DNA of 64,000 nt from contig CALWNP010000011.1 in assembly GCA_944382835.1 (NCBI GenBank), positions 535 to 64,534 of the forward strand. The letters are read 5' to 3'. Below the pieces are notes generated by a model. That model searched no databases, had not been told where the DNA came from, and saw only the letters and a program-made list of their open reading frames with translations. Numbering within the stretch: position 1 is the first letter of the stretch; every line of letters begins with the position of its first letter. Below, in pieces: positions 10,883 to 51,030 of the stretch. Made by a program: the position numbers and the translations under genes. The DNA comes from an uncultured Gemmiger sp. GTDB taxonomy: Bacteria; Bacillota; Clostridia; Oscillospirales; Ruminococcaceae.

Positions 10883-10884
10883 CC

Positions 10885-12138: not shown

Positions 12139-12150
12139 GAGGCGTGGAAT

Positions 12151-13430: not shown

Positions 13431-13752
13431 GACGCTGGCAGAGGTCCTGGTGGCCTTTGCGGTGCTGGCCCTGTTCGCCACCCTTTTTCTGGGGGCGGTT
13501 CGCTTTGCGGACCGGATGAATCTGGTGATAGAGACAGAGGAAGAGACTGTGACCGGAATCCTGCAATCCCTTTATGCGGGGGAAGGCCAGGTGACACAGC
13601 ATCCAGCGGAAGAATATACCTTCCTGACCCCGGACGGCACACCGGCATTTTCCATCCAGCCGCCTCGCCAGACGGTGACCCTGACCGTGGAGGAAGGCGG
13701 ACAGGAACGGCAGTATTCCTTCCGTCGGTTTGCCGGGGAGGCGGAACCATGA
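13399..13752 (+). CDS. small type IV pilin-like protein
   Basis: SG|ETLAEVLVAFAVLALF with E at +5; start trimmed to ATG 13399 behind GGAGGAG. Confidence 0.8.
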   Translation: MRAKLRQQSGETLAEVLVAFAVLALFATLFLGAVRFADRMNLVIETEEETVTGILQSLYAGEGQVTQHPAEEYTFLTPDGTPAFSIQPPRQTVTLTVEEGGQERQYSFRRFAGEAEP

Positions 13753-25883: not shown

Positions 25884-27296
25884 TTGCTGGAGAAAAACCA
25901 ACGAATCAAGGCCTTGTGCAGCGGTGCCCTGGATGCGGTGCTGCTGTTTGCCGCCTTCCTGCTGGCTAATTATCTGCGATTCAACTACCTGCGGTACTTC
26001 CAGCCCGGCGGAGCCGGCCCGGCGCTGCTCATCGCCCGGGACCACCGGACGGTGCTGGCCGGGGCTCTCTATGGCATCATTGCTGCCCTGGTGTTTGGGA
26101 TCTGCGGGCTTTATAATGCCTCCCGTCTGCGGGGACTGTGGCGCCGCTGCCGGACCATTGTGCTGGTCAATGCGGTTGGCATCCTGATCTTTGAGGCATT
26201 GCTCTATCAATTCCGGATAACTGATTTTTCCCGGATGGTCATTGGATTGTTTTACCTCTTCGGCACCGGCTTTTTGATTGCCAAGCGACTGTGTGTGCGC
26301 TGGTATGACCGCTGCCTGCGGCGCAAAGGGGAGGGCTTCCGTCACATTCTGCTGGTGGGGGGAGGCCGGATGGCCGGCCAGTACCTGCTGGCATTGGAAC
26401 GCAATCCCTATTATGGCTTCCAGGTGGATGGCTACCTGGCGCCGGCCGAAAACCCTTCGCTGAAGGCAAAATATTTGGGCGGATACGACAAGATGGACCA
26501 GTGCCTGGATGACCCCGCGGTGGAGGAGGTTTTGGTCGCGCTGGACGCCGATGAGATGGCCATGATTCCCAAGGCTTTCGCAGCCTGTGACAAACACGGC
26601 ACCCGCATCACCATGGTGCCCTTTTACAACGATTATCTGCCGGCACGCCCCACCATCGATGTGGTGGGCAACTGCAAACTCATCAACGTCCGCCAAACCC
26701 CCTTTGACAACATCCTCAATGCGGCGGTCAAGCGGCTGATGGATATTGTGGGAAGTCTGATCCTCATTGTCCTCACCAGCCCGGTGATGCTGGCGGTGGC
26801 CATCGGGGTCAAGCTGTCCAGCCCGGGACCCATCATCTTCCGGCAGGAGCGCATCGGGCTGAACAAGCGCCCCTTTATGATGTACAAGTTCCGGTCCATG
26901 CGGGTCAATGCCCAGCAGGATACCGGCTGGTCCACCGGAACCGATCCTCGCAAAACCCGGTTCGGCAGCCTGATCCGCAAATTCAGCCTGGATGAACTGC
27001 CGCAGTTTTTCAATGTCTTGAAAGGGGATATGAGCCTGGTGGGCCCGCGCCCCGAGGTGCCCTTTCATGTGGAGCACTTCAAGGAGGAAATTCCCCGGTA
27101 TCTAGTGCGGCAGCAGGTTCGCCCCGGATGCACCGGATGGGCCCAGATCAACGGCCTGCGCGGCGATACCGACATTGCCGAGCGGATCCGGTATGACATC
27201 TGGTACATCGAAAACTGGACCGTCGCGCTGGATATCAAGATTATTTTCCGTACCGTCTTTGGCGGTAAGATGGTCAACGATGAGAAAATTGGGTGA
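25884..27296 (+). CDS. wcaJ: undecaprenyl-phosphate hexose-1-phosphate transferase (initiating GT)
   Basis: Four N-terminal TM helices, CoA-binding-like middle domain, KFRSM, DELPQFFNVLKGDMSLVGPRPE, GWAQING. Confidence 0.93.
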   Translation: MLEKNQRIKALCSGALDAVLLFAAFLLANYLRFNYLRYFQPGGAGPALLIARDHRTVLAGALYGIIAALVFGICGLYNASRLRGLWRRCRTIVLVNAVGILIFEALLYQFRITDFSRMVIGLFYLFGTGFLIAKRLCVRWYDRCLRRKGEGFRHILLVGGGRMAGQYLLALERNPYYGFQVDGYLAPAENPSLKAKYLGGYDKMDQCLDDPAVEEVLVALDADEMAMIPKAFAACDKHGTRITMVPFYNDYLPARPTIDVVGNCKLINVRQTPFDNILNAAVKRLMDIVGSLILIVLTSPVMLAVAIGVKLSSPGPIIFRQERIGLNKRPFMMYKFRSMRVNAQQDTGWSTGTDPRKTRFGSLIRKFSLDELPQFFNVLKGDMSLVGPRPEVPFHVEHFKEEIPRYLVRQQVRPGCTGWAQINGLRGDTDIAERIRYDIWYIENWTVALDIKIIFRTVFGGKMVNDEKIG

Positions 27297-27320
27297 ATGC
27301 ACCTGGAAAGAAGGCAACAG

Positions 27321-28481
27321 ATGCAAAACAAAAAGCTGAAAGTGGCCATCGTGCATGACTGGCTGGTCTCCTATGCGGGAGCCGACCGGGTGGTGGACTG
27401 TATGCACCACGTCTTTCCCGATGCACCCATCTATACCCTGGTCTACGACCAGAAAAAGATGCCAGAGTGGTTCAAGGACTACGACATCCGCACCACCTAC
27501 ATCCAGAAATTGCCCTTTGCCACCCGGCTGTACAAGGCACTGCTGCCCTGGATGCCCCGGGCGTTCGAGGCGCTGGATCTTTCGGAGTATGATCTGGTGA
27601 TCTCCTCCTGCTCTTCCTGCAGCAAGGGGGTCATCACCCGGCCGGACGCGGTGCACATCTGCTACTGCAACACCCCGACCCGGTATATCTGGGATTTCTA
27701 CTACACCTATCGGGACAATGCCAACCCCCTGGTGCGTGCGGTCATGCCGGGACAGATCTACAAGCTGCGCCAGTGGGACAAGTGCGCCGCCGACCGGGTG
27801 GATTATTTCATTGCCAATTCCCACTACATTGCCCAGCGCATCAAGAAGTATTACCGCCGGGACAGTGATGTGATCTACCCCTGCGTTCACATCAATGAGG
27901 CGCCCTTTGTCCCCAAGGAGGACTTCTATCTGGTGGTGGGCCGCTTTACCTGGTACAAGCGGATGGACCTGGCGGTGGCTGCCTGCACCAAACTGGGCCG
28001 GCGGCTGGTGGTGATCGGCACCGGCGACGAGGAACGTGCTCTGCGCGCCATGGCAGGCCCCACCGTCGAGTTCAAGGGCAGCCTGTCCGACGCCGAAATC
28101 CGGGAGTACTATCTGCGGGCCAAGGCCTTCTTGTTCCCCGGAGAGGAAGACTTCGGCATCACCCCGGTGGAGGCCCAGAGCGCCGGAACCCCGGTGCTGG
28201 CCTTCCACCGTGGCGGCGCCTGTGAGACGGTGGTGGACGGAAAAACCGGCTTGTTCTTTGAGGCCCAGACCCCGGACAGTCTGGCGGACTGCATCCAGCG
28301 GTTCGAGCGGGAAGGGGTGGCCTGCAGCCCGGAGGAAATCCGGGAACACAGCCGGAAGTTCAGCGAGGCACGGTTTGAGTCCGAACTCCGGGACTATTGT
28401 GAACGCCGGGTGAAGGACTGGGCGGCGGAGCTGCGCGCCTGTTCCCACTGGGATCAGCAAGAAACGGAGGATACACTGTGA
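27321..28481 (+). CDS. GT4 glycosyltransferase (WbaZ-like mannosyltransferase family)
   Basis: VAIVHDWL, SKGVIT, YCNTPTRYIWD, EEDFGITPVEAQ. Confidence 0.9.
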   Translation: MQNKKLKVAIVHDWLVSYAGADRVVDCMHHVFPDAPIYTLVYDQKKMPEWFKDYDIRTTYIQKLPFATRLYKALLPWMPRAFEALDLSEYDLVISSCSSCSKGVITRPDAVHICYCNTPTRYIWDFYYTYRDNANPLVRAVMPGQIYKLRQWDKCAADRVDYFIANSHYIAQRIKKYYRRDSDVIYPCVHINEAPFVPKEDFYLVVGRFTWYKRMDLAVAACTKLGRRLVVIGTGDEERALRAMAGPTVEFKGSLSDAEIREYYLRAKAFLFPGEEDFGITPVEAQSAGTPVLAFHRGGACETVVDGKTGLFFEAQTPDSLADCIQRFEREGVACSPEEIREHSRKFSEARFESELRDYCERRVKDWAAELRACSHWDQQETEDTL

Positions 28482-29530
28482 AGCCCATTGTAATCAATGG
28501 CACGGTGCTGTGTGACACCATCACCGGCATCCCGCGCTATGTCTATGAGGTGGTCACCCGGCTGGACCCCCTGCTGGAGGGTACCGGTCTGGACGTCCGC
28601 CTCTGCTATCGGGACGATGGGCGGCCGCTGCATCTGCCTGCGCTGAAAAACATCCGCCTTGTGCCGCTGCATGCGGTGCGCTATGGCTATAACATGGTGG
28701 TTTTACCCCATTATCTGCGCCGGAACCATGCCTTTTACTGCGGCCTTGCCAGCGATGTGATCCTCACCCGCCACAGTGCGGTGGTGCTCCATGACATCCG
28801 TCCCCTGGTTCTGGAAGGGGACAAGGCTTTTTTCCGGTTCAAGTTCTGGGTCCATTGCCAGACCATCAAATGGTTTGCCGGGCAGATCTTTACTGACAGC
28901 TATAATCAGAAGGATTTGATCTGCAGCAAGCTGCACATTGCCCCCGATCGAGTGGAGGTGGTCTGGGCCGGCTGGGAGCATATCCAGCCGCTGGTCCCCG
29001 ATGAGACCATCTTTGACCGGATTCCGCAGCTCAAGCGGGGAGAATATTTTTATGCCCTGGGCAGTCTGGCCGCCCACAAAAACTACAAGTGGATCCGGGA
29101 AGTGGCCCGCCGCAACCCCGACAAGACCTTCGCGGTGGCGGGGGGCAAGGACCTGCGGGCTTTCGGTGAAGACAAGGAAGCGGTGGATACCCACAACATC
29201 CTCTACCTCGGCTATGTGACCGACGAGGAAAACAAGGCACTGATGCAGCATTGCCGGGCCTTTTTGCACCCGGCGGTCTTTGAGGGGTTCGGCATCCCGC
29301 CCCTGGAGGCGCTTTCGGTGGGGGCCAAAGTCCTGCTCTCCAAGGCCAGCTGCCTGCCCGAACTCTACGGTGATTGTGCCGCCTATTTTGACCCCAATGA
29401 TTATGAGGTGGATCTGGACGCCCTGCTGCAGACCCCGGTACAATCCCCCGAAGCGCTGCTGAAGAAATTCAGCTGGGATCGGATGGCCCGCTACTGGCTG
29501 GAACAGTTCCGCCGGTATGCGGCCGAATGA
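28478..29530 (+). CDS. GT4 glycosyltransferase
   Basis: TGIPRY, HDIRP, LGSLAAHKN, FEGFGIPPLEAL. Confidence 0.9.
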   Translation: MKPIVINGTVLCDTITGIPRYVYEVVTRLDPLLEGTGLDVRLCYRDDGRPLHLPALKNIRLVPLHAVRYGYNMVVLPHYLRRNHAFYCGLASDVILTRHSAVVLHDIRPLVLEGDKAFFRFKFWVHCQTIKWFAGQIFTDSYNQKDLICSKLHIAPDRVEVVWAGWEHIQPLVPDETIFDRIPQLKRGEYFYALGSLAAHKNYKWIREVARRNPDKTFAVAGGKDLRAFGEDKEAVDTHNILYLGYVTDEENKALMQHCRAFLHPAVFEGFGIPPLEALSVGAKVLLSKASCLPELYGDCAAYFDPNDYEVDLDALLQTPVQSPEALLKKFSWDRMARYWLEQFRRYAAE

Positions 29531-29543
29531 ATGAGGTGAAGCC

Positions 29544-30488
29544 ATGGACAAGATCGCGGTGATGATCCCCTGCTACAACGAGGCCAAAACGGTGGAAAAA
29601 GTGGTTTCGGATTTCCGCCGTGTCCTGCCCGAGGCGGTGGTGTATGTCTATGACAACAACTCCACCGACGGCACCCCGGAACTGGCGGAGGCCGCCGGCG
29701 CGGTGGTGCGGCATGAATACCGCCAGGGCAAGGGCAATGTGATGCGCCGGATGTTCCGGGAGATTGATGCCGAGGCCTATATTCTGGTGGACGGCGATGA
29801 TACCTACCCCGCCGAGGCAGCCCCCGGAATGATCCGGGCGGTGCTGGAGCGGCAGGCGGACATGGTGGTGGGGGACCGGCTTTCCAGCACCTATTTTACC
29901 CAGAACAAGCGTCCCTTCCACAATTTCGGCAACAGTCTGGTCCGCTTTTCCATCAACTGGCTGTTCGGCAGCCAGATCAAGGATATCATGACGGGATACC
30001 GCGCTTTCAGTTATCTCTTTGTGAAGACCTACCCGGTGCTCTCCCACGGGTTCGAGATTGAAACCGAAATGTCCATCCACGCGGTGCAGCGCTCGATGCA
30101 GATTGAAAATGTGGTGATCGACTACCGGGACCGTCCGGCGGGCAGCGAGAGCAAGCTGAACACCTATTCCGATGGAATGAAGGTCCTTTGGACCATCCTG
30201 CGGCTGTTCAAAAATTATCGCCCCTTTGGATTCTTCAGCATCCTGGCTGCGGTGATCGCGGTGCTCAGTGTTCTGTTTATGCTGCCGGTGGTGGGGGAGT
30301 ATTTGGTGACCGGGCTGGTGCCCCGTTTCCCGACCCTCATTGTCTGTGGCTGTGCCATGGTAGGGGCGCTGCTGCTTTTTGTCTCGGGCATCATTCTGTC
30401 CCAGATGCTGGACAAGGACCGCCGGGATTTTGAATTTCATCTTCAACAAGTGGAACATTGGAAAAAACAAGGAGACCGTCCTGCCTGA
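29544..30488 (+). CDS. GT2 polyprenol-phosphate glycosyltransferase (DPM1/GtrB-like)
   Basis: IPCYNE, YDNNSTD, GKGNV, LVDGDDTY, TGYRAF, two C-terminal TM helices. Confidence 0.9.
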   Translation: MDKIAVMIPCYNEAKTVEKVVSDFRRVLPEAVVYVYDNNSTDGTPELAEAAGAVVRHEYRQGKGNVMRRMFREIDAEAYILVDGDDTYPAEAAPGMIRAVLERQADMVVGDRLSSTYFTQNKRPFHNFGNSLVRFSINWLFGSQIKDIMTGYRAFSYLFVKTYPVLSHGFEIETEMSIHAVQRSMQIENVVIDYRDRPAGSESKLNTYSDGMKVLWTILRLFKNYRPFGFFSILAAVIAVLSVLFMLPVVGEYLVTGLVPRFPTLIVCGCAMVGALLLFVSGIILSQMLDKDRRDFEFHLQQVEHWKKQGDRPA

Positions 30489-30525
30489 AGAACAGGCTTA
30501 CGGATCCTGATGGGAGGAAATTGCT

Positions 30526-31659
30526 TTGAAACAGTATGATTATCTGATTGTCGGTGCAGGCCTGTTTGGCGCTGTGTTTGCCCACGAAGCCACCAAGGCG
30601 GGGCGGCGCTGCATGGTGATTGACAAGCGGGAGCACATTGCCGGCAATGTCTATACCGAGGAGATCGAGGGCATCAACGTCCACCGCTACGGGGCGCATA
30701 TCTTCCACACCAACAATAAGGAAGTGTGGGATTATGTCAACGGGTTTGCCACCTTCAACCGCTATACCAACTCCCCGGTGGCCAACTTCCACGGCGAGAT
30801 CTACAACCTTCCCTTCAATATGAACACCTTCAACAAGATGTGGGGAGTCGTTACGCCGGCAGAAGCCATGGCCAAGATCGAGGAGCAGCGGGCCCAGCAC
30901 TTTACGCCGGATCCCAAAAACCTGGAGGAACAGGCCATCAACCTGGTGGGCACCGACATCTACGACAAGCTGGTCAAGGGCTACACCGAGAAGCAGTGGG
31001 GCCGCCCCTGCACCGAACTGCCCGCCTTCATCATCAAGCGGATCCCGGTGCGCTACACCTATGACAACAATTATTTCAATGCATTGTATCAGGGCATTCC
31101 CTGTGGCGGCTACACCAAGATGGTGGAGCGGATGCTGGAGGGGGTTGAGGTGCGGCTGAACACCAACTACCTTCAGAACAAGGCCGAGCTGGATGCCCTG
31201 GCCGGCCGGGTGATTTATACCGGCCCTGTGGATGCCTACTTCGACTATGCCCTCGGCGCCCTGCAATACCGCAGTGTCCGTTTCGAGACCGAAGTGCTGG
31301 ACTGCCCCAACTACCAGGGCAATGCGGTGGTCAACTACACCGACCGGGAAACCCCCTATACCCGGGTCATCGAGCACAAGCATTTCGAGTTCGGCTCCAC
31401 CGAGCCCGGTACCAAAACGGTCATCAGCCGGGAGTACAGCGCCGAGTGGACACCGGGGGATGAACCCTATTATCCCGTCAACGATGACACCAACAACGCC
31501 CTCTACGCCCGGTACAAGGCGATGGCGGATGCGGAGCCTCATGTGGTGTTCGGGGGCCGTCTGGGCGAATATCGCTACTATGACATGGACAAAGTGATCG
31601 AGAGTGCACTGGCCTGTGTCAAGGTCCAGTTGGGAAAAATCAATCAGTATAACGTGTAA
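30526..31659 (+). CDS. glf: UDP-galactopyranose mutase
   Basis: GAGLFG FAD motif, HRYGAHIFHT, YTEKQWG, EPYYP, GRLGEYRYYDMD. Confidence 0.97.
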   Translation: MKQYDYLIVGAGLFGAVFAHEATKAGRRCMVIDKREHIAGNVYTEEIEGINVHRYGAHIFHTNNKEVWDYVNGFATFNRYTNSPVANFHGEIYNLPFNMNTFNKMWGVVTPAEAMAKIEEQRAQHFTPDPKNLEEQAINLVGTDIYDKLVKGYTEKQWGRPCTELPAFIIKRIPVRYTYDNNYFNALYQGIPCGGYTKMVERMLEGVEVRLNTNYLQNKAELDALAGRVIYTGPVDAYFDYALGALQYRSVRFETEVLDCPNYQGNAVVNYTDRETPYTRVIEHKHFEFGSTEPGTKTVISREYSAEWTPGDEPYYPVNDDTNNALYARYKAMADAEPHVVFGGRLGEYRYYDMDKVIESALACVKVQLGKINQYNV

Positions 31660-31747: not shown

Positions 31748-31776
31748 TTGATTTTTAGATACGGTTAAGGTACAAT
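31748..31776 (+). promoter_or_regulatory. sigma-A promoter of the rpe operon
   Basis: TTGATT-N17-TACAAT. Confidence 0.7.
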
Positions 31777-31831: not shown

Positions 31832-32485
31832 ATGATTCAAGTAAGCGCCTCCATTCTGTCGGCAGATTTCGCCACCTTGGGGCAGGAGTGTATCCGGGTT
31901 TTGGATGCCGGGGCCGATATGCTGCATTACGATGTGATGGACGGGCATTTTGTTCCCAACATCACCTATGGAATACCGGTTCTTGCCAGTCTGTGCCGTG
32001 CACTGCCCCAGGCGTGCTTTGACGCACATCTGATGATCCGGGACCCGATCCGCTATACGCCGCAGTTTATCAAAGCCGGTGCCGAGTGGATTACCTTCCA
32101 TCTGGAAGCGGTTCCCGATGCGGTGGAGCAGACCATTGACCTGATCCACCAGTCCGGTGCCAAGGCCGGGGGTTCCATCTGCCCGGCAACGCCTGTGGAG
32201 GCGCTGGACCCCTATCTGGACAAGCTGGACCTGGTCCTGATCATGGGGGTGGAGCCGGGATTCGGCGGACAGAAATTCCTGCCCCAAACCCCTGAACGGG
32301 TTGCCGCGGTGGCAAAGGCCTGCGCGGCACGCAATCTGCACCCGGTCATCCAGGTGGACGGCGGCATCAATGCCCAGACGGCCCCCCTCTGCGTCGCAGC
32401 AGGGGCCAACAACCTGGTGATGGGCAGCGCCCTGTTTGGGGCAAACGACCCCGCCGAAGTTGTCCGCGCGGTCAAATCTCTCTGA
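31832..32485 (+). CDS. rpe: ribulose-phosphate 3-epimerase
   Basis: SILSADF, DVMDGHFVPNIT, DAHLM, MGVEPGFGGQKF, VDGGI. Confidence 0.97.
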   Translation: MIQVSASILSADFATLGQECIRVLDAGADMLHYDVMDGHFVPNITYGIPVLASLCRALPQACFDAHLMIRDPIRYTPQFIKAGAEWITFHLEAVPDAVEQTIDLIHQSGAKAGGSICPATPVEALDPYLDKLDLVLIMGVEPGFGGQKFLPQTPERVAAVAKACAARNLHPVIQVDGGINAQTAPLCVAAGANNLVMGSALFGANDPAEVVRAVKSL

Positions 32486-32519: not shown

Positions 32520-33533
32520 ATGCCAAGACTACCCAGAATTGAGAAAAGTGTCAATTACGACTATTATGCCGATCTTTTGTGGTGCTGCGTGCCGCTGATG
32601 GCCATGAGCGTTTACTATTATGGCCTGCGCCCATTGCTGCTGATGGCGGTGGCGCTGCTGACCGCCTATATCTGTGACTGTCTGGTGACCCCGCTGCACG
32701 CTGCGGGGTATCGCCCTCATGAGCCCAGCAGCGAGTGTTTCGCCGCACTGATCACCCTGCTGATGCCGGCCACCGTGCCCTACGCCATCCTGGTGGTGGC
32801 AGTCATTACCGCGGTGATGGCCAAGGAGGCATTCGGCGGGGAAGGGCATTATCCTTTCCACCCCACTGCGGTGGGAATTGCTGTGGCCGCCATCTCCTGG
32901 CCCAACACCCTCTTCAGCTATCCCATTCCGGGAACCAAATTGCCGCTGTGGAATCCGACCGATGTCACCCTGACCAGCGGGATGCAGGCAACCCTGCGCA
33001 CCGGTGGTCTGCCTTCGGCCAGTACCATGAACCTGCTGGTGGGGAATGTGGAGGGCCCCTTGGGCACCTGTGCTGTGCTGGTGATCTGTGCCTGCGGCCT
33101 GTTCCTGCTGGTGCGCAAACACCTGCATCTCTCCATCTTTCTGCCTTATCTGGCGGTGCTGGTGGTGCTGCCCTGGCTGTTCCCCAGCCTGAATGAGCTG
33201 CCCAACCTGTCCTTCCCTTGGGAATATGTCCGCCAGCGCATCTATCTGGAAAAGTATATTCTGCTGTCCGGAACCTCGCTGTTCGGCGGACTGTTCCTGG
33301 CCAGTGAGCCGGTCACCTGTCCCAACCGCACAGCCAGTCGGATCATCTACGGGTTGGTGCTGGGCGTTGCGGCAGTGGCTTTCCGCTATTTCAGCATCTA
33401 TGAAACCGGCATCTGCTTCGCCTTGCTGATTGTGGGCGCCTTCCCCGAGTGGCTGGATCTCGTGGGCCGCCGTGCCGAGCGGATGAGATTTATGAAGAAG
33501 GAGGAGAAGCGGCTTGCCAAACATGGAGCATAA
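32520..33533 (+). CDS. rnfD: RnfD/NqrB-family membrane protein, divergent
   Basis: YYYGLRPLLL, AKEAFGGEG, GNVEGPLG, FLASEPVTCP, IIYGLVLG align by eye to RnfD; S/T-A-T-P FMN motif not seen; AAGGAGG RBS. Confidence 0.8.
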   Translation: MPRLPRIEKSVNYDYYADLLWCCVPLMAMSVYYYGLRPLLLMAVALLTAYICDCLVTPLHAAGYRPHEPSSECFAALITLLMPATVPYAILVVAVITAVMAKEAFGGEGHYPFHPTAVGIAVAAISWPNTLFSYPIPGTKLPLWNPTDVTLTSGMQATLRTGGLPSASTMNLLVGNVEGPLGTCAVLVICACGLFLLVRKHLHLSIFLPYLAVLVVLPWLFPSLNELPNLSFPWEYVRQRIYLEKYILLSGTSLFGGLFLASEPVTCPNRTASRIIYGLVLGVAAVAFRYFSIYETGICFALLIVGAFPEWLDLVGRRAERMRFMKKEEKRLAKHGA

Positions 33534-34395
33534 CAATCCCAAACGGAAGAAAAAGCCTGTTCAGCATACGCAAACCGTTATCATTCCTCAGATCACGCCG
33601 GAAATCCTGGAACAGGCCCGGCGTGCGGCCGAAACGCCGCCCACGCCGCCACAGCCTGCACCGGAACAGCCCCGGCAGGAACAGCGGACTGAACAACCCC
33701 GGCCGGCGGCGCAGCAGACCCATGCCAAACCGGCCAAGCGGACCCGGGCCGAAGCCGAGGCGGAGCTGTATCAGAGCATCCATGACGACCACCTGTGGCT
33801 GAACAACCCGGTGATGGTCCGTGGCCTGGGCTTGGCCCCGGTGGTGGCGGTGGCCAGCGATGGCGACAATGCCCTGATGCTGTGCGCGGCGGCCATCCTG
33901 TTGCTGACCACCACCCGAATGCTGGCGGTAGCGGTGTGCCACCTGACCGGAAACCGGTTCCGTGCCCTGGTGTATTCCTTCTCGGCCGCGGTACTGTACA
34001 TTCCGGCCTATCTGATCCTGTATCACCTGTTTGGTGCCGACCTTTCGGTGCTGGGCATTTATCTGCCGCTGCTGGTGGTGGAACCTGCCATCATCAAGCG
34101 CTTGGAGGCACCGGAACTGGAATCGGTGGGAGAGGCCTTCCGTCGGGGCATCAACAATACCGTCGGCCTTTGCATCTCACTGCTGCTGGTGGGAAGCCTG
34201 CGGGAGGTTCTCTCGGTGGGCACCCTGTTCGGCCATACAATTCTGAACACCCAGCTCCTTCCGCTGGCCAGCCAGCCGGCGGGCGGTTTCCTGCTGCTGG
34301 GATTCATCTCGGCCATCTGGACCGCAGTAGGCGGCGCCTACGTCCATTACAAACGGGAGGAGGTGCGCCATCTGTATGGTAACCGGAAGCATTGA
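33514..34395 (+). CDS. rnfE: RnfE/NqrD-family membrane protein with Pro/Gln-rich N-terminal extension, divergent
   Basis: NNPVMVRGLGLAP, YLPLLVV, LLLVGSLREVLSVGTLFG, PAGGFLLLG. Confidence 0.8.
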   Translation: MPNMEHNNPKRKKKPVQHTQTVIIPQITPEILEQARRAAETPPTPPQPAPEQPRQEQRTEQPRPAAQQTHAKPAKRTRAEAEAELYQSIHDDHLWLNNPVMVRGLGLAPVVAVASDGDNALMLCAAAILLLTTTRMLAVAVCHLTGNRFRALVYSFSAAVLYIPAYLILYHLFGADLSVLGIYLPLLVVEPAIIKRLEAPELESVGEAFRRGINNTVGLCISLLLVGSLREVLSVGTLFGHTILNTQLLPLASQPAGGFLLLGFISAIWTAVGGAYVHYKREEVRHLYGNRKH

Positions 34396-35026
34396 GATGA
34401 CGGTTTTTCAGGCAATCGGGCAGTTCATCAGCTATGCGGTGCTGGCCATCTTTGCTGAGAACGTGGTGTTCTCCCGGGCCCTGGGCGTGTCTCGCCTTAC
34501 CAAACTGGTGTCGGACCCCGATGTCAAAACCTGGCAGTATTGCACTCCGGTCATTCTGGTGCAGCTGCTCAGCGCCCCCGCCGGATGGGCGGCACACAAC
34601 CTTCTCTTCAACTGGATTCGCACCTGGCTGCCTGCCTGGATGCCGATTGCAACGCTTCGTCCGGTAATCTACCTGACCTGTGCTGCGTTGGCCATGGCGG
34701 TGGTATGGCTGTTGCTCTCGGTTTTTCCGGCCGGGCAGCGGGCGGCTTTTCGGGAACAGCTTCCCCTGGCCACCTGCAACTGTTGTGTCTTGGGCACCCT
34801 GCTGATTTGCGCCAACCAGAATTACACCCTGTTGCAGTACATTGCCTTTGGTCTGGGCAGCGGCGTGGGTTATCTGGTGGCGGTGCTGGTGGTGGATGAA
34901 GGCCGCCGCCGGCTGCGCAGCAAGGATATTCCGGCCGTGTTCCGGGGGTTGCCCAGCTATCTGATCTATATTGGCATTCTTTCCTTGGCCATCTATGGCC
35001 TGATGGGGCATGGTGTGACCCTTTAA
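34376..35026 (+). CDS. rnfA: RnfA/NqrE-family membrane protein, divergent
   Basis: ENVVFSRALG, LPLATCNCCVLG, GLGSGVGYLVA, IPAVFRGLP. Confidence 0.82.
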   Translation: MVTGSIEMTVFQAIGQFISYAVLAIFAENVVFSRALGVSRLTKLVSDPDVKTWQYCTPVILVQLLSAPAGWAAHNLLFNWIRTWLPAWMPIATLRPVIYLTCAALAMAVVWLLLSVFPAGQRAAFREQLPLATCNCCVLGTLLICANQNYTLLQYIAFGLGSGVGYLVAVLVVDEGRRRLRSKDIPAVFRGLPSYLIYIGILSLAIYGLMGHGVTL

Positions 35027-35051: not shown

Positions 35052-36332
35052 ATGAATCGTTGTTTTCTCCCCGCAGAAATCCTGCTGCCGCCGGAGGGGA
35101 CCCCGCTGGATCCCTGGGCGTGTATTGCGGTGGATCAGTTCACTTCCCAGCCTGAATACTGGCAGAAAGCCGAGGAACGGGCGGCGGGAAAACCCAGTAC
35201 CCTGCACATTGTGCTGCCCGAGGCCTATCTGGGAACCCTACAGGAGGAAGAACGGCTGCGGTCCATCCGTGCCGCGATGGAGGATTACCGTGCCCATCTG
35301 CTGACCCGACAGGTCCATGGCTTTATCTATCTGGAACGGACCCAGATGGACGGAACCATCCGCCAGGGTCTGGTTGGGGCGGTGGATCTGGAAGCGTACA
35401 GCTACGATCCCGGCGCCAAACTGGCCATCCGCCCCAGCGAAAACACCGTTGTCTCCCGGATTCCGCCCCGGCTCAAGGTGCGGCGGGGGGCCAGTCTGGA
35501 AACACCTCATGTGATGATGCTGGCAGACGACCCGGAAGAAACCCTCATCGAGCCGGTGGCTGCCCATAAGGCCCAGCTGCCTCTGTTGTACGACGGTGAG
35601 CTCATGCTGGGCGGCGGCCATCTGCGCGGCTGGGCGGTGGAAGACCCTGCCCTGATCCAGACCATCCAGGATGCCATCGATGGGTTGGGGGATGCCGGAC
35701 GCTTCGCCGCGCGGTGGCCAGATGCCGTCGACCAGCCTCCCATGGTGCTGGCGGTGGGGGATGGCAACCATTCCCTGGCAACAGCCAAGGCCTATTGGGA
35801 GGAACTGAAGGCCACCCTGACACCAGAACAGCAGCAGAATCACCCGGCCCGGTACTGCCTGGCCGAGGTCTGCAATGTTCATTCGCCGGCCATCGAGATC
35901 GAGCCGATCCATCGGGTGGTGTTTGGCAGCAACGCCGGAGAAGTGCGCCAGGCGATGGCGCTCTGGCTGAGCCAACGGGGTGCTGAGCTTGTGGAAGCGC
36001 CGGCGGAGCAGACCTTTGTCCTGGTGGGCGATGGTGCCGAAGAGACGTTGGGCATTCACAATGCCCCGGCCCCCCTGACGGTAGGCACGGTGGAACAATT
36101 CCTGGCAGATTATCTTGCCGCCCACCCCGAAAGTTCGGTGGATTACATCCACGGTGCAGAGACTGCCCGGTCGATGGCCGGGGAAAAGGCCACGGCGCTG
36201 CTGATGCCGGAGTTTGCCAAGGCAGATTTGTTCCGCGGCGTGGTTTTGGGCGGTGTGCTGCCCCGTAAAACCTTCAGCATGGGGCACGCCGAGGAAAAAC
36301 GCTATTACAACGAATGCCGCAGCCTGATCTAA
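35052..36332 (+). CDS. DUF1015 family protein
   Basis: WACIAVDQFTS, PSTLHIVLPE, VGDGNHSLATAK, LPRKTFSMG..EKRYY.ECR. Confidence 0.85.
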   Translation: MNRCFLPAEILLPPEGTPLDPWACIAVDQFTSQPEYWQKAEERAAGKPSTLHIVLPEAYLGTLQEEERLRSIRAAMEDYRAHLLTRQVHGFIYLERTQMDGTIRQGLVGAVDLEAYSYDPGAKLAIRPSENTVVSRIPPRLKVRRGASLETPHVMMLADDPEETLIEPVAAHKAQLPLLYDGELMLGGGHLRGWAVEDPALIQTIQDAIDGLGDAGRFAARWPDAVDQPPMVLAVGDGNHSLATAKAYWEELKATLTPEQQQNHPARYCLAEVCNVHSPAIEIEPIHRVVFGSNAGEVRQAMALWLSQRGAELVEAPAEQTFVLVGDGAEETLGIHNAPAPLTVGTVEQFLADYLAAHPESSVDYIHGAETARSMAGEKATALLMPEFAKADLFRGVVLGGVLPRKTFSMGHAEEKRYYNECRSLI

Positions 36333-36365: not shown

Positions 36366-36845
36366 ATGGCCACAAACGAGAAAAATACACCCAATCAAGC
36401 GGCACCCCAGGGGGCGTCCTCCTCAGCGCGTCGCCGTCGGCGCCGCAGCCATCACAGTGGTGGGAGCACCCAGGCGCAGAGCGGGGGACAGAACGGGGAA
36501 AAGGCAGCTGCGGCACAGCCGAAAAAACAATCCGGTGGCAAGGCAGCTGCCAACCGGCAGCCATCGCAGAACCAAGGTCGCAAGCAGAATGGCCGCGGTA
36601 GTTCCGGGACCAAAAACACCCCGGCCAAAGCCGGTCAGGAGCCCCGCAGCCATCGCGCTGCTGAACCGCGCCGCCGCACATCGGCACGGGAGGAAGATCC
36701 CGGTCTGGTGCTGATTACCCGGCGGCCGCCCAAACAGAAGTTTGCCAATTTTGAAGAGTACATTGCCGCCCACGGCGGAGTGACCGCTCCCATTCCGGGA
36801 GAGGAGGAGACTGACCCCGATGACCGGACGGAGGAGAACAGATGA
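36366..36845 (+). CDS. basic low-complexity hypothetical protein
   Basis: Arg/Lys/Gln/Gly/Ser-rich; short ordered-looking KQKFANFEEYIAAHGGVTAPI near the C-terminus; overlaps the rlmA start. Confidence 0.7.
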   Translation: MATNEKNTPNQAAPQGASSSARRRRRRSHHSGGSTQAQSGGQNGEKAAAAQPKKQSGGKAAANRQPSQNQGRKQNGRGSSGTKNTPAKAGQEPRSHRAAEPRRRTSAREEDPGLVLITRRPPKQKFANFEEYIAAHGGVTAPIPGEEETDPDDRTEENR

Positions 36846-37678
36846 CCCCTGAAACGGTCGGTGGTCTGCGCTGCCCGGTTTGTCACGGTCCTTTGATGCA
36901 GATGGGCCGTTCGCTGCGTTGTGCTAAGGGCCACAGCTTTGATCTGGCCAAGGAAGGCTATGTCAATCTGCTGCCCATCCAGAAAAAGCATGCTGCCGAT
37001 CCCGGCGACGGCAAGGAGATGGTGCGGGCGCGGCGCCGCTTTTTGGAAGGGGAATGGTATGGCCCGTTCCGCCGGATGCTGGCCACCCTCTGCTGCCAGT
37101 ATGCGCCTCAGGATCGCCCGGCCCGGATTGTGGATGCCGGATGCGGCGAGGGAAGCTATGACCGGGCGGTGCTGGATGCTCTGCAGCAGCGAGGGGAGCT
37201 GATCGGCTTTGACCTCTCCAAGGAGGCGGTGCGGCTGGCCGCCCGACTGGTTCCCCAGGCCGCCTTTGCGGTGGGGGGCAGTTTCTGTGCCCCTGTGCGG
37301 GATGGCTGGGCGGATCTACTGCTCAACGTCTTTTCCCCCATGGCACGGGAGGAATTTCTAAGGATGCTGCGGCCCGGCGGCTATCTGATCTATGCGGTCC
37401 CCACCCCGCGGCATCTCTACGGCCTTAAGCAGATTTTATACCAGACGCCCTACGAGAACCCTGTCCAGCAGACCGACTACGAAGGTCTGCGGTTCGTGGA
37501 GCGGCGGGATGTCAGTGATGAGATTACCCTGAAAGGGGACCAGATTCAGGATCTCTTCGCCATGACGCCTTATTACTGGAACACCCCGGCGCAGGGGACA
37601 CAGCGGTTGTCCCAATGCACCCGGCTGACCACCGAAATCGGTTTCGGTTTCCTGGTCTATCAAAAACCCCAACCCTGA
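36842..37678 (+). CDS. rlmA: RlmA-like 23S rRNA m1G745/748 methyltransferase
   Basis: Zinc finger CPVC...CAKGHSFD, GYVNLL, DAGCGEG SAM motif, LFAMTPYYW. Confidence 0.88.
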   Translation: MTPETVGGLRCPVCHGPLMQMGRSLRCAKGHSFDLAKEGYVNLLPIQKKHAADPGDGKEMVRARRRFLEGEWYGPFRRMLATLCCQYAPQDRPARIVDAGCGEGSYDRAVLDALQQRGELIGFDLSKEAVRLAARLVPQAAFAVGGSFCAPVRDGWADLLLNVFSPMAREEFLRMLRPGGYLIYAVPTPRHLYGLKQILYQTPYENPVQQTDYEGLRFVERRDVSDEITLKGDQIQDLFAMTPYYWNTPAQGTQRLSQCTRLTTEIGFGFLVYQKPQP

Positions 37679-37683
37679 CAAAA

Positions 37684-37732
37684 CAAACCCCGCCCCCGTC
37701 TGCTGTGTGCGACAGACGGGGGCGGGGTTTTG
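37684..37732. terminator. bidirectional intrinsic terminator
   Basis: AAACCCCGCCCCCGTCTG...CAGACGGGGGCGGGGTTTT between convergent genes. Confidence 0.9.
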
Positions 37733-38135: not shown

Positions 38136-38993
38136 ATGCGTTCACGGCCGGGACTTTTTTTTCAGAGCCTGGCTCTAACCCTGTTGTTGTTGCTGCCCAT
38201 GATGGGGGTGGTGCTGTTTCTGGTGGGGCAGCGGGAGGAGCAAAATGAGCTGCGCCAGGCCGCGGCCCGGCAGGGAAGTGTGGCGGTGGAAACCGGCGCC
38301 CAGAACACCCATCGCCTGCTGGTGGCGATACAGGGAGACCCGCCTTCCTTTGTGCTGGTGCGGCTGGATGGCCCGGCCCGCACCATCACCTTCTGCGGGC
38401 TGCCCAGCCGGATGCTGGTAAAGGCCCCCGCAGGGCAGACTACCCTGGGAGACTGTTATATGACGGCCGGGCCAGCCCGGGCAGCCCAACTGCTGGAAGA
38501 CACCCTTGGCCTGGCCCCGGATGCCTACTTTGCAGCCACAGCCGATTGCTACGCCGGATTTCTGGACGAAACGGCCACTGCCCGGGTGGATACCGCCTCG
38601 CTGCTGGAAAAGGAAACCCGGATTGCTCTGGGGTATGGCACCGACACGGTGGCAGAACTGACCCCCGAAACGGCAGAGGACTTTATTGGACAGCTCTCGG
38701 AAGTGTTGGAGGAGCCCCAGGCCTCTTCGGTCCGGGCCGCGGTTTGGGCGGCCTTTCTGCGGCAGGAACCCACCCGGCTGACCCAGATTCCCCAGGTCGC
38801 CCGGGACAACTCCGCCCGCACCCTCACTGATTTGCTGGCCCAGGACCTGTATACCATCGAGGAGACCATGACCTACCTGGCGGGCCAGTCCACCCTGACA
38901 GTCCAGTACCTGGTCCCCACGGGACAGGACGGCGCGGACGGCTGGGTTCTGGATGAGGACGGAACCCAGTTGCTTCAGGAATTGCTGGGCTGA
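38136..38993 (+). CDS. membrane-anchored LytR-CpsA-Psr-like protein, degenerate active site
   Basis: N-terminal TM then FVLVRLD..ARTITFCGLP, LGDCY..AG, LLEDTLGLAPDAYF pattern typical of the LCP fold. Confidence 0.65.
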   Translation: MRSRPGLFFQSLALTLLLLLPMMGVVLFLVGQREEQNELRQAAARQGSVAVETGAQNTHRLLVAIQGDPPSFVLVRLDGPARTITFCGLPSRMLVKAPAGQTTLGDCYMTAGPARAAQLLEDTLGLAPDAYFAATADCYAGFLDETATARVDTASLLEKETRIALGYGTDTVAELTPETAEDFIGQLSEVLEEPQASSVRAAVWAAFLRQEPTRLTQIPQVARDNSARTLTDLLAQDLYTIEETMTYLAGQSTLTVQYLVPTGQDGADGWVLDEDGTQLLQELLG

Positions 38994-40387
38994 TGCTCCA
39001 GCCAGGCGTGGTGCAGCGCTCGGGCCACCAGCGGGATATCCTCGGCGGATAGGGCCGCATAGCCGGCCACTACCGTGTCGGCGGGGCAGCGTTCCGGCCT
39101 GGCCATGTAATAACTGCTCAATCCCACAAGTCGGACCCCCTGGGCGGCGGCTGCATCCACCATGGCAGCCTCCCCTCCGGCATCCGGCAGGGTCAAAAGG
39201 AAGTGCAGGCCGGAATGAGTGCTTCCCAGCCGCAGCTGGGGGCCCAGCTCCCGGCGCAGCGCCTGCCCGAAGGCTTCCATCCGGCGCTTGTAGGCCAGCC
39301 GCATCCGAGCGATGTGGCGGGAAAAATACCCTTCATGGATAAAGCGGCGTAAGGTCTGCTGCTCAAACCGGCTGACGGTGTTGGCATAGACGGCAAAATC
39401 CTGCCGGTAGCGCAGCAAAAGCGGCTGAGGCAGCACCATGCAGGCAATACGGATGCCGGGGGCCAGACTCTTGGAAAAGGTGGTCAAATAGATCACCGGT
39501 CCATTGGGACCGGCCATCCCCTGCAGGCTGGGCAGCGGGCGGGTGTCAAACCGGAATTCCGAGTCATAGTCGTCTTCCAGAATGAAGCGGCCGGGCTGTT
39601 CGGCGGCCCAGGAGAGCAGCTGGGCGCGGCGGGGTGCTGGCATGGTGACCCCGGTGGGAAAATGGTGGCTGGGGGTGATGTAGCAGAGGTTGGCCCCGCT
39701 GGCCACCAACCCGTGCACCGGCAGCCCGCTCTTGTCAATGTCCACCGGAACACAGCGGATGCCGTTGTTCTGCAGCACCGCCCGGGTGCGCCCGTAGCCG
39801 GGATTTTCGATGGCGGCCACACTTTGTTGGAACAGGTGGGCGAGACACCCCAGCAGATACTCGATGCCGGCACCCACAACCACCTGGTCGGGGGTGCAGT
39901 CCACCCCGCGGGAGTCCCGCAGATATGCGGCAATCTCGGTGCGCAGCTCTGCATCCCCCTGCATCGCCCCGCGCTGCAACAGCTCGGGACATTGGTAGAG
40001 CAGTTCCTTCTGGATGCGTCCCCAGCTGCGGGCAGGAAACAGGGCGGTGTCGATGCTCCCGGTGGAGAGGTCAAATCTCGGTTGCTCCGGAGCAGGCGGC
40101 GGCACAGCGGGGGAGAGCATGGCTGGATGAGGTCGGGGGTGAAGCATACCGCCGGTTTCCTGTACATAAAATCCACTGCGGGGCCTGGACTCGGCCAGGC
40201 CCTCGGCAGCCAACATCTGATAGGCGGCGTCCACCGTGTTCACACTGATGCCCAGCCGGGATGCCATGGTCCTGCGCCCCGGCAGGGCACTACCCGGTGC
40301 CAGTGCTCCGGTGCGTATTTCCTCGGCCAGGGCGGCATAGAGCTGTTCATAGAGCGGATTCTTGCTTTCGGTTTCCAATGCAATCAT
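38975..40387 (-). CDS. MocR/GabR (PdxR-like) PLP-dependent transcriptional regulator
   Basis: GntR wHTH (LPGRR.MA..LGISVNTV..AY..L.AEG) fused to an aminotransferase fold (ENPGY, YITPSHHFPTG, EDDYDSEF, TFSKSLAP). Confidence 0.95.
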   Translation of the reverse strand: MIALETESKNPLYEQLYAALAEEIRTGALAPGSALPGRRTMASRLGISVNTVDAAYQMLAAEGLAESRPRSGFYVQETGGMLHPRPHPAMLSPAVPPPAPEQPRFDLSTGSIDTALFPARSWGRIQKELLYQCPELLQRGAMQGDAELRTEIAAYLRDSRGVDCTPDQVVVGAGIEYLLGCLAHLFQQSVAAIENPGYGRTRAVLQNNGIRCVPVDIDKSGLPVHGLVASGANLCYITPSHHFPTGVTMPAPRRAQLLSWAAEQPGRFILEDDYDSEFRFDTRPLPSLQGMAGPNGPVIYLTTFSKSLAPGIRIACMVLPQPLLLRYRQDFAVYANTVSRFEQQTLRRFIHEGYFSRHIARMRLAYKRRMEAFGQALRRELGPQLRLGSTHSGLHFLLTLPDAGGEAAMVDAAAAQGVRLVGLSSYYMARPERCPADTVVAGYAALSAEDIPLVARALHHAWLEHQPSNS

Positions 40388-49658: not shown

Positions 49659-49687
49659 TTGACAGGCAGGGGATGGTCGGATATAAT
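49659..49687 (+). promoter_or_regulatory. sigma-A promoter
   Basis: TTGACA-N17-TATAAT, exact consensus. Confidence 0.92.
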
Positions 49688-49693
49688 AACCTG

Positions 49694-49752
49694 CGGGAAT
49701 GAAGTTCTCCCGTGGGAAACCAAAACCGCTTTTGACGAGCTGATGACTTCTG
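49694..49752 (+). ncRNA. fluoride riboswitch (crcB motif)
   Basis: GGGAATGAAGTTCTCCC...AAACCGCT...GCTGATGACTTCT matches the crcB aptamer pattern including the GAAGT/ACTTC pseudoknot. Confidence 0.92.
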
Positions 49753-49787
49753 TGATGGAATGGATCGCAGAAGGCATCAGCTCTTTT
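49737..49787 (+). terminator. riboswitch expression-platform terminator
   Basis: GAGCTGATGACTTCTGTGAT/ATCGCAGAAGGCATCAGCTC 20-bp stem plus TTTT, overlapping the 3' half of the aptamer. Confidence 0.85.
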
Positions 49788-49809
49788 GCGTCCGAAAGGA
49801 GTTTTGTGT

Positions 49810-51030
49810 ATGTTGACCTCCCTGGCACTGATCTTTTTGGTGGGGCTGTCGCTGGCAGCCCTCTGTCAGCAGCTGCGGCTGCCCCGCATCATCGGGATGC
49901 TCTTCACCGGCATCCTGTTGGGGCCCCATCTGCTCAACCTTTTGGACCCGTCCATCCTCTCCATCTCAGCGGATCTGCGGCAGATGGCCCTGATCATTAT
50001 TCTGATCAAGGCCGGTCTGTCCCTGAACCTGGCCGACCTCAAGCGGGTGGGGCGCCCGGCCGTCCTGATGTGCTTTCTACCCGCCTCCTTTGAAATGCTG
50101 GCGTTCTGGCTGCTGGCGCCCTCCTTGCTGGGCATCACCCGGGTGGAAGCAGCGGTCATGGGGGCAGTGCTGGGGGCGGTATCTCCCGCTATTGTGGTGC
50201 CCCGGATGGTCCAGCTTATGGAAACCGGGTACGGTACCAAGAAGGGCATCCCTCAGATGATCCTGGCGGGGGCTTCCTGCGACGACATCTATGTGATTGT
50301 GCTGTTCACCACCTTCACCGGCATGGCCCAGGGGAGCGATGCCAGCCTGTGGGCACTGGCTGGGGTGCCGGTGTCCATCCTATTGGGGGTTCTGCTGGGC
50401 GCCCTGGTGGGGGTGGGACTGGCGTACTTTTTTGAAACGGCCTATGCCCACCGGCACTATGTCCGCAACAGCATGAAGGTGATCCTGGTGCTGGGCATTG
50501 CCTTTCTGTTGATTGCAGTGGAAAACGCCCTCAAAGGCATTGTACCGGTTTCGGGGCTGCTGGCGGTGGTCAGCATGGCCTGCGTACTCCATATAAAATG
50601 CACCCCGTTTGTCTCCTGCCGCTTGGCCGAGAAGTTCGGCAAGCTGTGGCTGGCCGCCGAGGTCATCCTCTTTGTCCTGGTGGGGGCGGCGGTGGACATC
50701 CGCTACACCCTGGAGGCCGGTCCGATGGCGGTGCTGATGATCCTGCTGGCGCTGGTGTTCCGGATGCTCGGGGTGCAGCTCTGTGTGCTGGGCACCTCGC
50801 TGACCCGGCGGGAACGGCTCTTCTGTGCCATTGCCTACCTGCCCAAGGCCACGGTTCAGGCGGCCATCGGTTCGGTGCCGCTGGCCCTGGGGCTGCCCTG
50901 CGGCAAATTGGTGCTCTCGGTGGCGGTGCTGGCCATCCTGATCACCGCACCGCTGGGGGCACTGGGGATCGATCTGAGTTTTCCGCGCTGCCTGGAGCGG
51001 ACAGAATTGCCGGCAGGGGAGAGGCAATAA
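49810..51030 (+). CDS. cation:proton antiporter (CPA1/NHA-like)
   Basis: About 12 TM helices; LRQMALIIILIKAGL, AVSPAIVVP, ASCDDI, YLPKATVQAAIG. Confidence 0.88.
   Translation: MLTSLALIFLVGLSLAALCQQLRLPRIIGMLFTGILLGPHLLNLLDPSILSISADLRQMALIIILIKAGLSLNLADLKRVGRPAVLMCFLPASFEMLAFWLLAPSLLGITRVEAAVMGAVLGAVSPAIVVPRMVQLMETGYGTKKGIPQMILAGASCDDIYVIVLFTTFTGMAQGSDASLWALAGVPVSILLGVLLGALVGVGLAYFFETAYAHRHYVRNSMKVILVLGIAFLLIAVENALKGIVPVSGLLAVVSMACVLHIKCTPFVSCRLAEKFGKLWLAAEVILFVLVGAAVDIRYTLEAGPMAVLMILLALVFRMLGVQLCVLGTSLTRRERLFCAIAYLPKATVQAAIGSVPLALGLPCGKLVLSVAVLAILITAPLGALGIDLSFPRCLERTELPAGERQ

Follow-up and report, generated by a model that had tools for sequence, protein, structure and literature searches.

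Three overlapping genes, D', E' and A' (32520..35026, + strand), in a 64,000-nucleotide stretch of DNA from an uncultured Gemmiger sp. (contig CALWNP010000011.1 of assembly GCA_944382835.1, positions 535 to 64,534 of the forward strand, hereafter the window) encode homologues of the RnfD, RnfE and RnfA membrane subunits of the Rnf complex in which the residues that hold redox cofactors have largely been replaced. In all likelihood the trio is not a ferredoxin:NAD+ oxidoreductase, because the electron path is broken at the iron-sulphur cluster, flavin mononucleotide (FMN) and riboflavin sites and the subunits for electron entry, exit and shuttling are missing, and with considerable confidence it can be regarded as a constrained, non-Rnf, cofactor-poor complex. 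The loss of cofactor sites is a trait of the family rather than a sign of decay, and Gemmiger and its relatives, including Faecalibacterium, probably use the trio as something other than a redox pump. The reading favoured here, to which a probability of roughly 0.45 is given, is that D'E'A' is a paralogue of the Rnf membrane core that lacks its cofactors and acts as a redox-independent translocator.

Cofactor sites of the trio

The three genes of the trio are as follows.

32520..33533, + strand: D', an RnfD/NqrB homologue of 337 amino acids (aa) without the covalent-FMN threonine (PF03116, E = 8e-49, 167 bits)
33514..34395, + strand: E', an RnfE/NqrD homologue of 293 aa (PF02508, E = 6e-28, 98.5 bits)
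34376..35026, + strand: A', an RnfA/NqrE homologue of 216 aa (PF02508, E = 3e-23, 83 bits; phmmer match to NqrE chain 7xk3_E, 2e-15)

By these two Pfam families and by predicted fold, the trio belongs to the Rnf/Nqr membrane-subunit superfamily, with NCBIfam scores that fall well below the curated cut-offs (rnfD 119 against 207 bits, rnfE 75 against 213, rnfA 73 against 229). The AlphaFold model of D' (predicted local distance difference test, pLDDT, 92.9) is matched by Foldseek to RnfD (9eri_D and 8ahx_D, template-modelling score, TM, 0.76-0.80) and next to NqrB, with weaker matches to Rh, urea-transporter and Amt chains (TM 0.3-0.46, E>0.05), and the modelled core of E' (pLDDT ~76-86) resembles RnfE (9eri_E) and NqrD at a TM of 0.75. 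The E' protein carries an N-terminal extension of ~85 aa that is disordered and rich in Pro, Gln, Ala and Glu; its first ~77 residues are mostly disordered in the model, with pLDDT <50 at 1-27 and 41-72, and its start may be either TTG at 33514 or ATG at 33523. A Shine-Dalgarno sequence, AAGGAGG, lies 6 nt 5' of D', and the genes overlap by 20 nt at both the D'/E' and E'/A' junctions.

In Acetobacterium woodii, the covalent FMN is attached to RnfD T156, riboflavin is held by RnfD N123 and D249, and the ligands of the [2Fe-2S] cluster are RnfA C25 and C113 together with RnfE C25 and C108 (PMC11889175, PMC12174285). The set used for aligning the window proteins consisted of fragments of solved Rnf and Nqr chains and of 51-77 canonical sequences, the latter taken from operons that a metagenome scan had returned and that were picked by their C-D-(G)-E-A gene order. 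A direct check found the motifs DVTLTSGMQ, FHPTA, GLGLAP, VVEP, LGVSR and ATCNCCV in the places where an earlier, sequence-only reading, made by eye, had put them, and the alignments assign the residues at the cofactor sites as listed.

32859..32861, + strand: D' His114 codon, at the site of riboflavin ligand Asn123 (canonical N 77/77; family H 72, N 22)
32979..32981, + strand: D' Gly154 codon, at the site of the FMN-bearing RnfD Thr156 (canonical T 75/77; family G 63, S 24, A 4, T 4)
33306..33308, + strand: D' Glu263 codon, at the site of riboflavin ligand Asp249 (canonical D 77/77; family E 81, D 14)
33835..33837, + strand: E' Ala108 codon, at the site of RnfE Cys25 (canonical C 64/64; family A 84/91, Cys 3)
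34081..34086, + strand: E' Glu190-Pro191 codons, at the site of RnfE Asn107-Cys108 (canonical N-C 56/64; family E/D 84/91, P 81/91)
34490..34495, + strand: A' Ser39-Arg40 codons, at the site of RnfA Cys25-Pro26 (canonical C 51/51; family S/T 87/90)
34781..34783, + strand: A' Cys136 codon, the sole retained ligand position, that of RnfA Cys113 (canonical C 50/51; family C 29/90, T 32, S 25)

The sequence-only reading had taken DVTLTSGMQ to mean that the FMN threonine of RnfD is lost, and three multiple alignments agree in placing Gly154 at this site, a position that varies among G, S, A and T across the family and is unconserved. A pairwise HMMER alignment instead sets Thr147 (in the motif NPT) opposite the FMN threonine; in P0074, the closest 50%-identity representative (66% identical), Val was read by eye at the Thr147 position. 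The replacement of NPA by HPT corresponds to His114, and the Asn that it displaces is a riboflavin ligand; the His and Glu found in the window at the two riboflavin sites are conservative replacements. At the cluster, the changes described as LGLCP to LGLAP, VVNC to VVEP and LGICP to LGVSR prove to lie at ligand sites, and the claim that cysteines survive only in TCNCC of A' also holds, with Cys136 as the one ligand position kept and three of the four cluster cysteines missing. Even Cys136 is unconserved in relatives, and Cys was never seen in the family at the C108 site of E' or the C25 site of A' among ~90 loci. The multiple alignments with Rnf and Nqr sequences thus recover neither the threonine nor the three cysteine ligands.

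Variation at the cluster also occurs elsewhere. Eight RnfE genes that form a single subgroup and stand in canonical-looking C-D-(G)-E-A contexts (L118, L136, L139, L140, L144, L145, L147 and L150) read IVAFA[SI]… in place of IVVNCIILARAE, so that the C108 ligand is gone; the same contigs retain the RnfD threonine and RnfE C25, and both RnfA cysteines are present in the seven that have RnfA on the contig. The C108 ligand is therefore not universal even in apparently complete operons. Another stripped variant is locus L165 (environmental contig Ga0265293_10013691, 1672-6120). Its RnfC gene precedes an RnfD in which the FMN threonine is present and to which three FMN-binding-like repeats with SGATxSS motifs are fused, and after these come E and A homologues that carry zero cluster cysteines.

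In place of the lost ligands the family has acquired a pair of charged residues. The position of RnfE N107 is Glu in 70 and Asp in 14 members (Glu190 in the window), and the position of RnfA P26, directly after C25, is Arg across the family (Arg40 in the window); the combination of an acid in E' with Arg in A' is found in 77 of 90 family loci and in none of the canonical operons, where N is found together with P or S. In canonical structures, RnfE C108 and RnfA C25 bind one cluster that is flanked by the N107 and P26 positions (PMC11889175, PMC12174285). Since both cysteines bind the same cluster, the new Glu and Arg side chains should meet in the vacated space, and we infer that Glu190 and Arg40 would be in contact there. 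Several other residues remain. The RnfE R67/E115 ion pair, implicated by mutagenesis of the A. woodii complex in initial Na+ binding or Na+ entry, is retained as Arg150 and Glu198 (family R 83/91, E 63/91), and A' keeps the equivalents of RnfA N112 and R154; RnfA Lys32, for which a part in sensing the terminal RnfB cluster has been proposed, is not retained. D' keeps both Phe positions of the gate proposed for NqrB and the acidic residue of the TD motif, as read by eye from a pairwise HMMER alignment.

The partner subunits are missing as well. The statement that only the D, E and A homologues are present, with no rnfB, rnfC, rnfG or apbE in the operon, was borne out by open reading frame (ORF), Pfam and NCBIfam searches, which found no RnfB, RnfC, RnfG or ApbE in the operon or the 64-kb window. 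No Pfam match to Rnf, Fer4, FMN_bind, ApbE or PF00175 families was obtained for 40 further ORFs of the window, and neither a paralogue of the trio nor an RnfC-like or DUF4015 gene was found among its ORFs of at least 60 aa.

A constrained family and its loci

The close homologues of D' are 63-100% identical to it, and those that are named belong to Gemmiger or Subdoligranulum; the best match in the genome scan is that of Gemmiger gallinarum (72%), and the DNA of the window itself occurs in chicken-gut metagenomes only. An exhaustive D' search returned 165 clusters at 50% identity with E<1e-30 and 918 with E<1e-10. The genome scan yielded 80 loci, labelled mainly as Gemmiger, Subdoligranulum, Faecalibacterium and Fournierella, and in every one with enough flank the order is rpe-D'-E'-A', with most continuing into DUF1015, the basic protein or a helicase, and rlmA. 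Where an upstream flank was recovered, rpe, the most constant neighbour of the trio, is almost always found directly 5' of D' or of mecA-RnfC'-D'. The family spans ~30% to 100% identity. In a D tree built by neighbour joining and rooted on NqrB, after midpoint rooting had proved uninformative, 82/82 family D' sequences fall in one clade with no canonical sequence inside it, a distance-based result without bootstrap that is to be taken as indicative. The window trio groups with this clade and shares its marks, having no RnfG between D' and E', rpe upstream, and the residues Ala108, Glu190-Pro191 and Ser39-Arg40.

Pairwise ratios of nonsynonymous to synonymous substitution (dN/dS) against 13 Gemmiger-type orthologues are 0.19-0.38 for D', 0.15-0.35 for E' and 0.18-0.33 for A', compared with 0.21-0.36 for rpe, 0.14-0.29 for DUF1015 and 0.13-0.33 for rlmA, all of them rough values as dS is near saturation. 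The trio genes clearly evolve as constrained genes. Against Gemmiger orthologues, the dN of rpe is ~0.35, that of D', E' and A' ~0.2-0.3 and that of glf ~0.09. The sequence-only reading had held that intact, coupled ORFs point to repurposing rather than decay, and this view is upheld by synteny in 80 genomes, by dN/dS values like those of the neighbours, by the monophyly of the family and by confident RnfD and RnfE folds.

More distant members are informative about the order in which components may have been lost. Among those of 30-40% identity a richer and older arrangement is found, with a full block of rpe, a divergent mecA, an RnfC homologue (RnfC'), D', E', A' and a membrane-anchored DUF4015 protein in L088-L090, and parts of the RnfC'/DUF4015 block occur in L005 and L091-L094, whose contigs are shorter or differently flanked. 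Over its full length, the RnfC' of L088 can be aligned with the RnfC of A. woodii (125 bits), and both [4Fe-4S] motifs are present; the Gly-rich FMN/NADH loop has degenerated, with GLGGATFPTHVK replaced by IDEIDG--VPLYVK, and the loop of two further RnfC' sequences is likewise degenerate by eye. RnfC' is missing from L003, L086, L087 and all Gemmiger and Faecalibacterium loci, and the RnfC'-less loci examined form one subclade of the neighbour-joining tree, again without bootstrap. Neither an RnfG between D' and E' nor an RnfB was found in the family loci examined. Both riboflavin ligands, N123 and D249, are kept in 8/8 RnfC'-bearing loci, whereas at least one of them has changed in most members without RnfC', the whole Gemmiger/Faecalibacterium clade among them; L086 keeps both. 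Because the RnfC'-bearing loci keep these ligands and most of the others have changed them, we read the pattern as a stepwise loss that began with RnfG, RnfB, the cluster and the FMN and later, in the lineage of the window, took in RnfC' and the riboflavin site.

In every Faecalibacterium-type locus, and in most of the distant ones with a recovered downstream flank, DUF4015 comes after A'; it is absent from the window and from Gemmiger/Subdoligranulum-type loci. Its single solved relative is the uncharacterised 4S1A, and one paper mentions it in passing. Many distant D' proteins (L089 4228-6507; P0196, P0197, P0199, P0203 and P0225) bear Lys/Glu-rich, low-complexity C-terminal tails of 150-430 aa, while in the Gemmiger clade a comparable disordered stretch is found on the N-terminus of E' instead, the Subdoligranulum E' reaching 429 aa. 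Apparent Rpe-RnfD' fusions (P0045, P0354) were rejected as frameshift or assembly artefacts, the Rpe C-termini being out of frame. At L086 (11320-17206) the genes after the trio are pgk, tpi, gpmI, serC and serA, and in the window and Faecalibacterium DUF1015/SerBK takes this place, so that serine and central carbon metabolism are touched on twice, in separate ways; a link to serine metabolism, considered on account of SerBK and of serC/serA in L086, was rejected as not general, since L087-L090 lack it.

A published case very probably belongs to the family as well. Faecalibacterium duncaniae has a complete rnfCDGEAB operon plus an rnfDEA set, treated as a second rnf operon for NADH:ferredoxin oxidoreductase activity (PMC10781979). 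The rnfDEA genes of strain A2-165 (CG447_09830-09840) very probably belong to the same family as D'E'A', and the trio is an extra paralogue there, given that the complete operon is also present. The question of a separate complete rnf operon, raised by the sequence-only reading, is thus answered for this relative rather than for the window's own genome. The order rpe-D'-E'-A' and the substitutions of the window recur in other Faecalibacterium loci (e.g., F. prausnitzii L077).

Within the window, the trio sits in a unit of seven genes (rpe, D', E', A', DUF1015, a 159-aa basic protein and rlmA) between a promoter-like site and a hairpin. A promoter at 31748 and a terminator at 37684 had been proposed from the sequence, and features are indeed found at or next to these places; the remaining features of the unit, with the gene before it, are listed below.

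30526-31659, + strand: glf, co-oriented gene directly before rpe
31748..31776, + strand: candidate sigma-70-like promoter 5' of rpe, TTGATT-17-TACAAT (9/12 matches in a consensus scan, weak alone)
31832..32485, + strand: rpe, ribulose-phosphate 3-epimerase, gene 1 of the unit (PF00834, E = 2e-67)
35052..36332, + strand: DUF1015 protein (SerBK family), downstream gene (PF06245, E = 5e-58)
36366..36845, + strand: basic protein of 159 aa without a Pfam match, homologous solely to the C-terminal tail of a Faecalibacterium DEAD-box helicase
36842..37678, + strand: rlmA-like 23S rRNA methyltransferase gene, last of the unit (PF21302 and NF008300, 8e-72)
37685..37730, no strand assigned: GC-rich 19-bp hairpin followed by TTTT on the + strand (sequence scan), likely a bidirectional terminator

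The DUF1015 gene probably shares a transcript with the trio. For its family, SerBK, a function as a serine kinase that substitutes for phosphoserine phosphatase has been proposed (bioRxiv 10.1101/2024.10.14.618325). In Faecalibacterium the place of the 159-aa basic protein is taken by a 657-aa DEAD-box RNA helicase (L077 12825-14798), whose tail (…DPGLVLISRRPPQQKFTNFEEY…) is the part that the basic protein matches; in Gemmiger-type loci the short tail-like gene stands alone at the helicase position.

Elsewhere in the window, a gene for an energy-coupling factor (ECF)-type riboflavin transporter S component (PF07155; 40449-41186, +) lies ~5 kb 3' of the trio and is preceded by a divergent gene for a GntR/aminotransferase (MocR-type) regulator (38975-40387). 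A fluoride riboswitch (49686-49759, +; 42.7 bits against a gathering score of 34) is found directly 5' of a Na_H_Exchanger-family gene (49786-51030, +), after which comes a sodium:neurotransmitter symporter-family gene. The upstream regions 7963-14456 and 25884-31659 encode a PASTA-domain protein, a prepilin peptidase, a protein like the F component of type II secretion systems (T2SS-F) and a pilin with an N-methylation motif, together with an exopolysaccharide cluster comprising a Bac_transf priming transferase and several GT1/GT2 glycosyltransferases; glf ends this cluster before rpe.

Candidate functions

On the favoured reading, a separate monophyletic family would have split from true Rnf with the loss of RnfG, RnfB, the [2Fe-2S] cluster and the covalent FMN, and the lineage of the window would additionally have lost a degenerate RnfC and altered both riboflavin ligands. 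A transporter-like architecture would have stayed behind, with D' retaining an Amt/urea-transporter-like fold and E' and A' forming a pseudo-symmetric heterodimer that could alternate by a rocker-switch between inward- and outward-open states, so that Na+, H+ or a small solute would be moved without redox drive. The Glu190 carboxylate of E' and Arg40 of A' may supply the fixed charge and gate, a role that falls to the reduced cluster in the real pump. For A. woodii, the model has Na+ drawn into the E/A core by the negative charge that the cluster carries when reduced; a fixed carboxylate and arginine would accordingly be expected had the site become redox-independent. That the trio is a cation or solute translocator using the Glu-Arg site is a tentative proposal, for which we would offer somewhat less than even odds; the retained R67/E115 pair, the new acid-Arg pair and the loss of RnfA Lys32 count in its favour. 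The fuller version, that it is the first member of the Rnf/Nqr superfamily to work without redox chemistry, a secondary translocator of ions or solutes in which a buried Glu-Arg pair replaces the [2Fe-2S] cluster as the binding or gating charge, is advanced more tentatively still.

Several observations limit the case for a cofactor-free translocator. In the E' monomer model, which does not resolve the half-helix break, transmembrane helix 4 is unbroken at Glu190, where confidence is ~63, and the model speaks neither for nor against the Glu-Arg contact. His114 and Glu263 of D' could still hydrogen-bond a flavin, and Cys136 of A', together with Cys134 and Cys137, could bind a metal. The conserved neighbours rpe, mecA, DUF4015 and DUF1015 hold no clue to transport, and a search for a riboswitch or other RNA element 5' of the operon, in the window and in 8 related loci, gave none. 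The family counts, moreover, are dominated by related genomes and do not represent independent events.

An unlikely, if the best surviving, alternative is that the trio serves as a scaffold or sensor, either positioning or regulating an extracytoplasmic envelope enzyme, the TIM-barrel protein DUF4015, or signalling through disordered cytoplasmic tails. The adjacency of DUF4015 to A' in all Faecalibacterium-type and most distant flanked loci would suit such a role, as would the variable, charged, disordered extensions of up to ~430 aa on the D' C-terminus or the E' N-terminus. DUF4015 is nevertheless missing from the window and from Gemmiger/Subdoligranulum loci, where the trio is similarly constrained, and the most conserved residues are in the membrane core rather than on the surfaces.

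It is quite unlikely that a residual redox role persists, with D' binding a non-covalent flavin and passing electrons to a partner, either across the membrane or along it, while E' and A' are structural only. The distant members that keep RnfC' with both [4Fe-4S] motifs and both riboflavin ligands (8/8 RnfC' loci) suggest that the ancestral family was partly redox-active, and the His and Glu of the window are conservative substitutions. The lineage of the window, however, has no RnfC', FMN threonine, or Fe-S or FMN-binding partner in the operon; riboflavin ligands have changed in most RnfC'-less members, albeit not in L086; and the FMN/NADH loop is already degenerate in one aligned RnfC' and in two others by eye.

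More improbable by far would be an alternative membrane module that assembles with canonical RnfB, RnfC and RnfG and still couples ferredoxin:NAD+ electron transfer to ion pumping. Its attractions are that rnfDEA as well as rnfCDGEAB figures in PMC10781979 as a putative rnf operon for NADH:ferredoxin oxidoreductase, that the folds are conserved and that the NCBI name of D' is 'RnfABCDGE type electron transport complex subunit D'. The label of E', on the other hand, is merely 'Rnf-Nqr domain containing protein', the scores are far under the NCBIfam cut-offs and RnfA Lys32 is not kept. The electron path requires the four-Cys [2Fe-2S] cluster and the RnfD FMN, and the window has changed three of the four Cys, the Thr and both riboflavin ligands; in A. 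woodii, mutation of a cluster cysteine or a riboflavin ligand abolishes activity and growth (PMC11889175). Finally, decay of a duplicated rnf operon, of which these genes would be the remnants, as the loss of cofactor residues and partner subunits might imply, is scarcely credible when the ORFs are intact and translationally coupled, dN/dS is on a par with that of neighbours and a large conserved family (~30-100% identity) has gained new family-specific conserved residues.

Relation to known redox and transport systems

Compared with the Rnf complex (RnfABCDGE; 7ZC6, 8AHX, 9ERI), the trio has the same Pfam families, similar folds (TM 0.75-0.80) and the D-E-A gene order, and it keeps the RnfE R67/E115 pair, RnfA N112 and R154, motifs of the FGG...NPA type and the gating-Phe positions of NqrB. 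It differs in the absence of RnfG, RnfB and RnfC, in the disordered N-terminal extension of E' and in the Glu/Arg pair at the cluster site, and the six subunits C, D, G, E, A and B do not occur together in the window. Partial gene sets built around an NqrB/RnfD homologue, as in the trio, are also known from the NQR/RNF-like flavinylation-associated systems, in which an RnfD-like domain is fused to the NqrF NAD-binding domain (PF00175) and adjoins an FMN-binding or ApbE gene; these have a redox function and are known chiefly from Actinobacteria and candidate phyla radiation (CPR) bacteria (PMC8238504). An assignment of the trio to this type was rejected, as D' is a stand-alone PF03116 protein and no PF00175, FMN_bind or ApbE was found in the ORFs scanned.

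Apart from the mention in F. duncaniae, no description of cofactor-site loss, of a non-redox Rnf-like family or of partial rnfDEA or rnfCDEA sets was found in the literature, and the missing cofactor sites of rnfDEA are not remarked on in that study (PMC10781979). The trio passes for Rnf in annotation pipelines and in at least one Faecalibacterium study. Were it cofactor-free, energy-conservation schemes and metabolic models that assume two rnf operons would be wrong for some highly abundant gut butyrate producers of humans and animals. The family is widespread in abundant gut Clostridia (Faecalibacterium, Gemmiger, Subdoligranulum). It is disputed whether the Na+ path runs via RnfD/NqrB or via RnfA/E (PMC12174285, PMC11889175); a cofactor-free D'E'A', by separating the transport architecture from the redox chemistry, would help to settle the matter.

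RnfD and NqrB are held to be structurally and evolutionarily related to the Amt/Rh and urea transporters (PMC12174285), to which a cofactor-free D' would be closer in kind, although the similarity is remote (TM 0.3-0.46, E>0.05). In contrast to the Amt and urea channels, D' keeps, by eye, both Phe positions of the NqrB constriction to which the blocking of continuous flow has been attributed. The Na+-NQR (NqrABCDEF) belongs to the same superfamily as the trio; the window has no NqrA, NqrC or NqrF, and D' aligns only from NqrB residue 150 on, without the quinone-binding helices at the NqrB N-terminus. NqrA is a homologue of RnfC that has lost all its cofactors and is yet kept in the complex (PMC12174285). 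The membrane core of Na+-NQR, however, keeps the [2Fe-2S] cluster, both covalent FMNs and riboflavin, whereas in the trio the membrane core itself has been stripped, and the stepwise stripping of a redox pump that the family suggests would complement NqrA as a case of cofactor loss.

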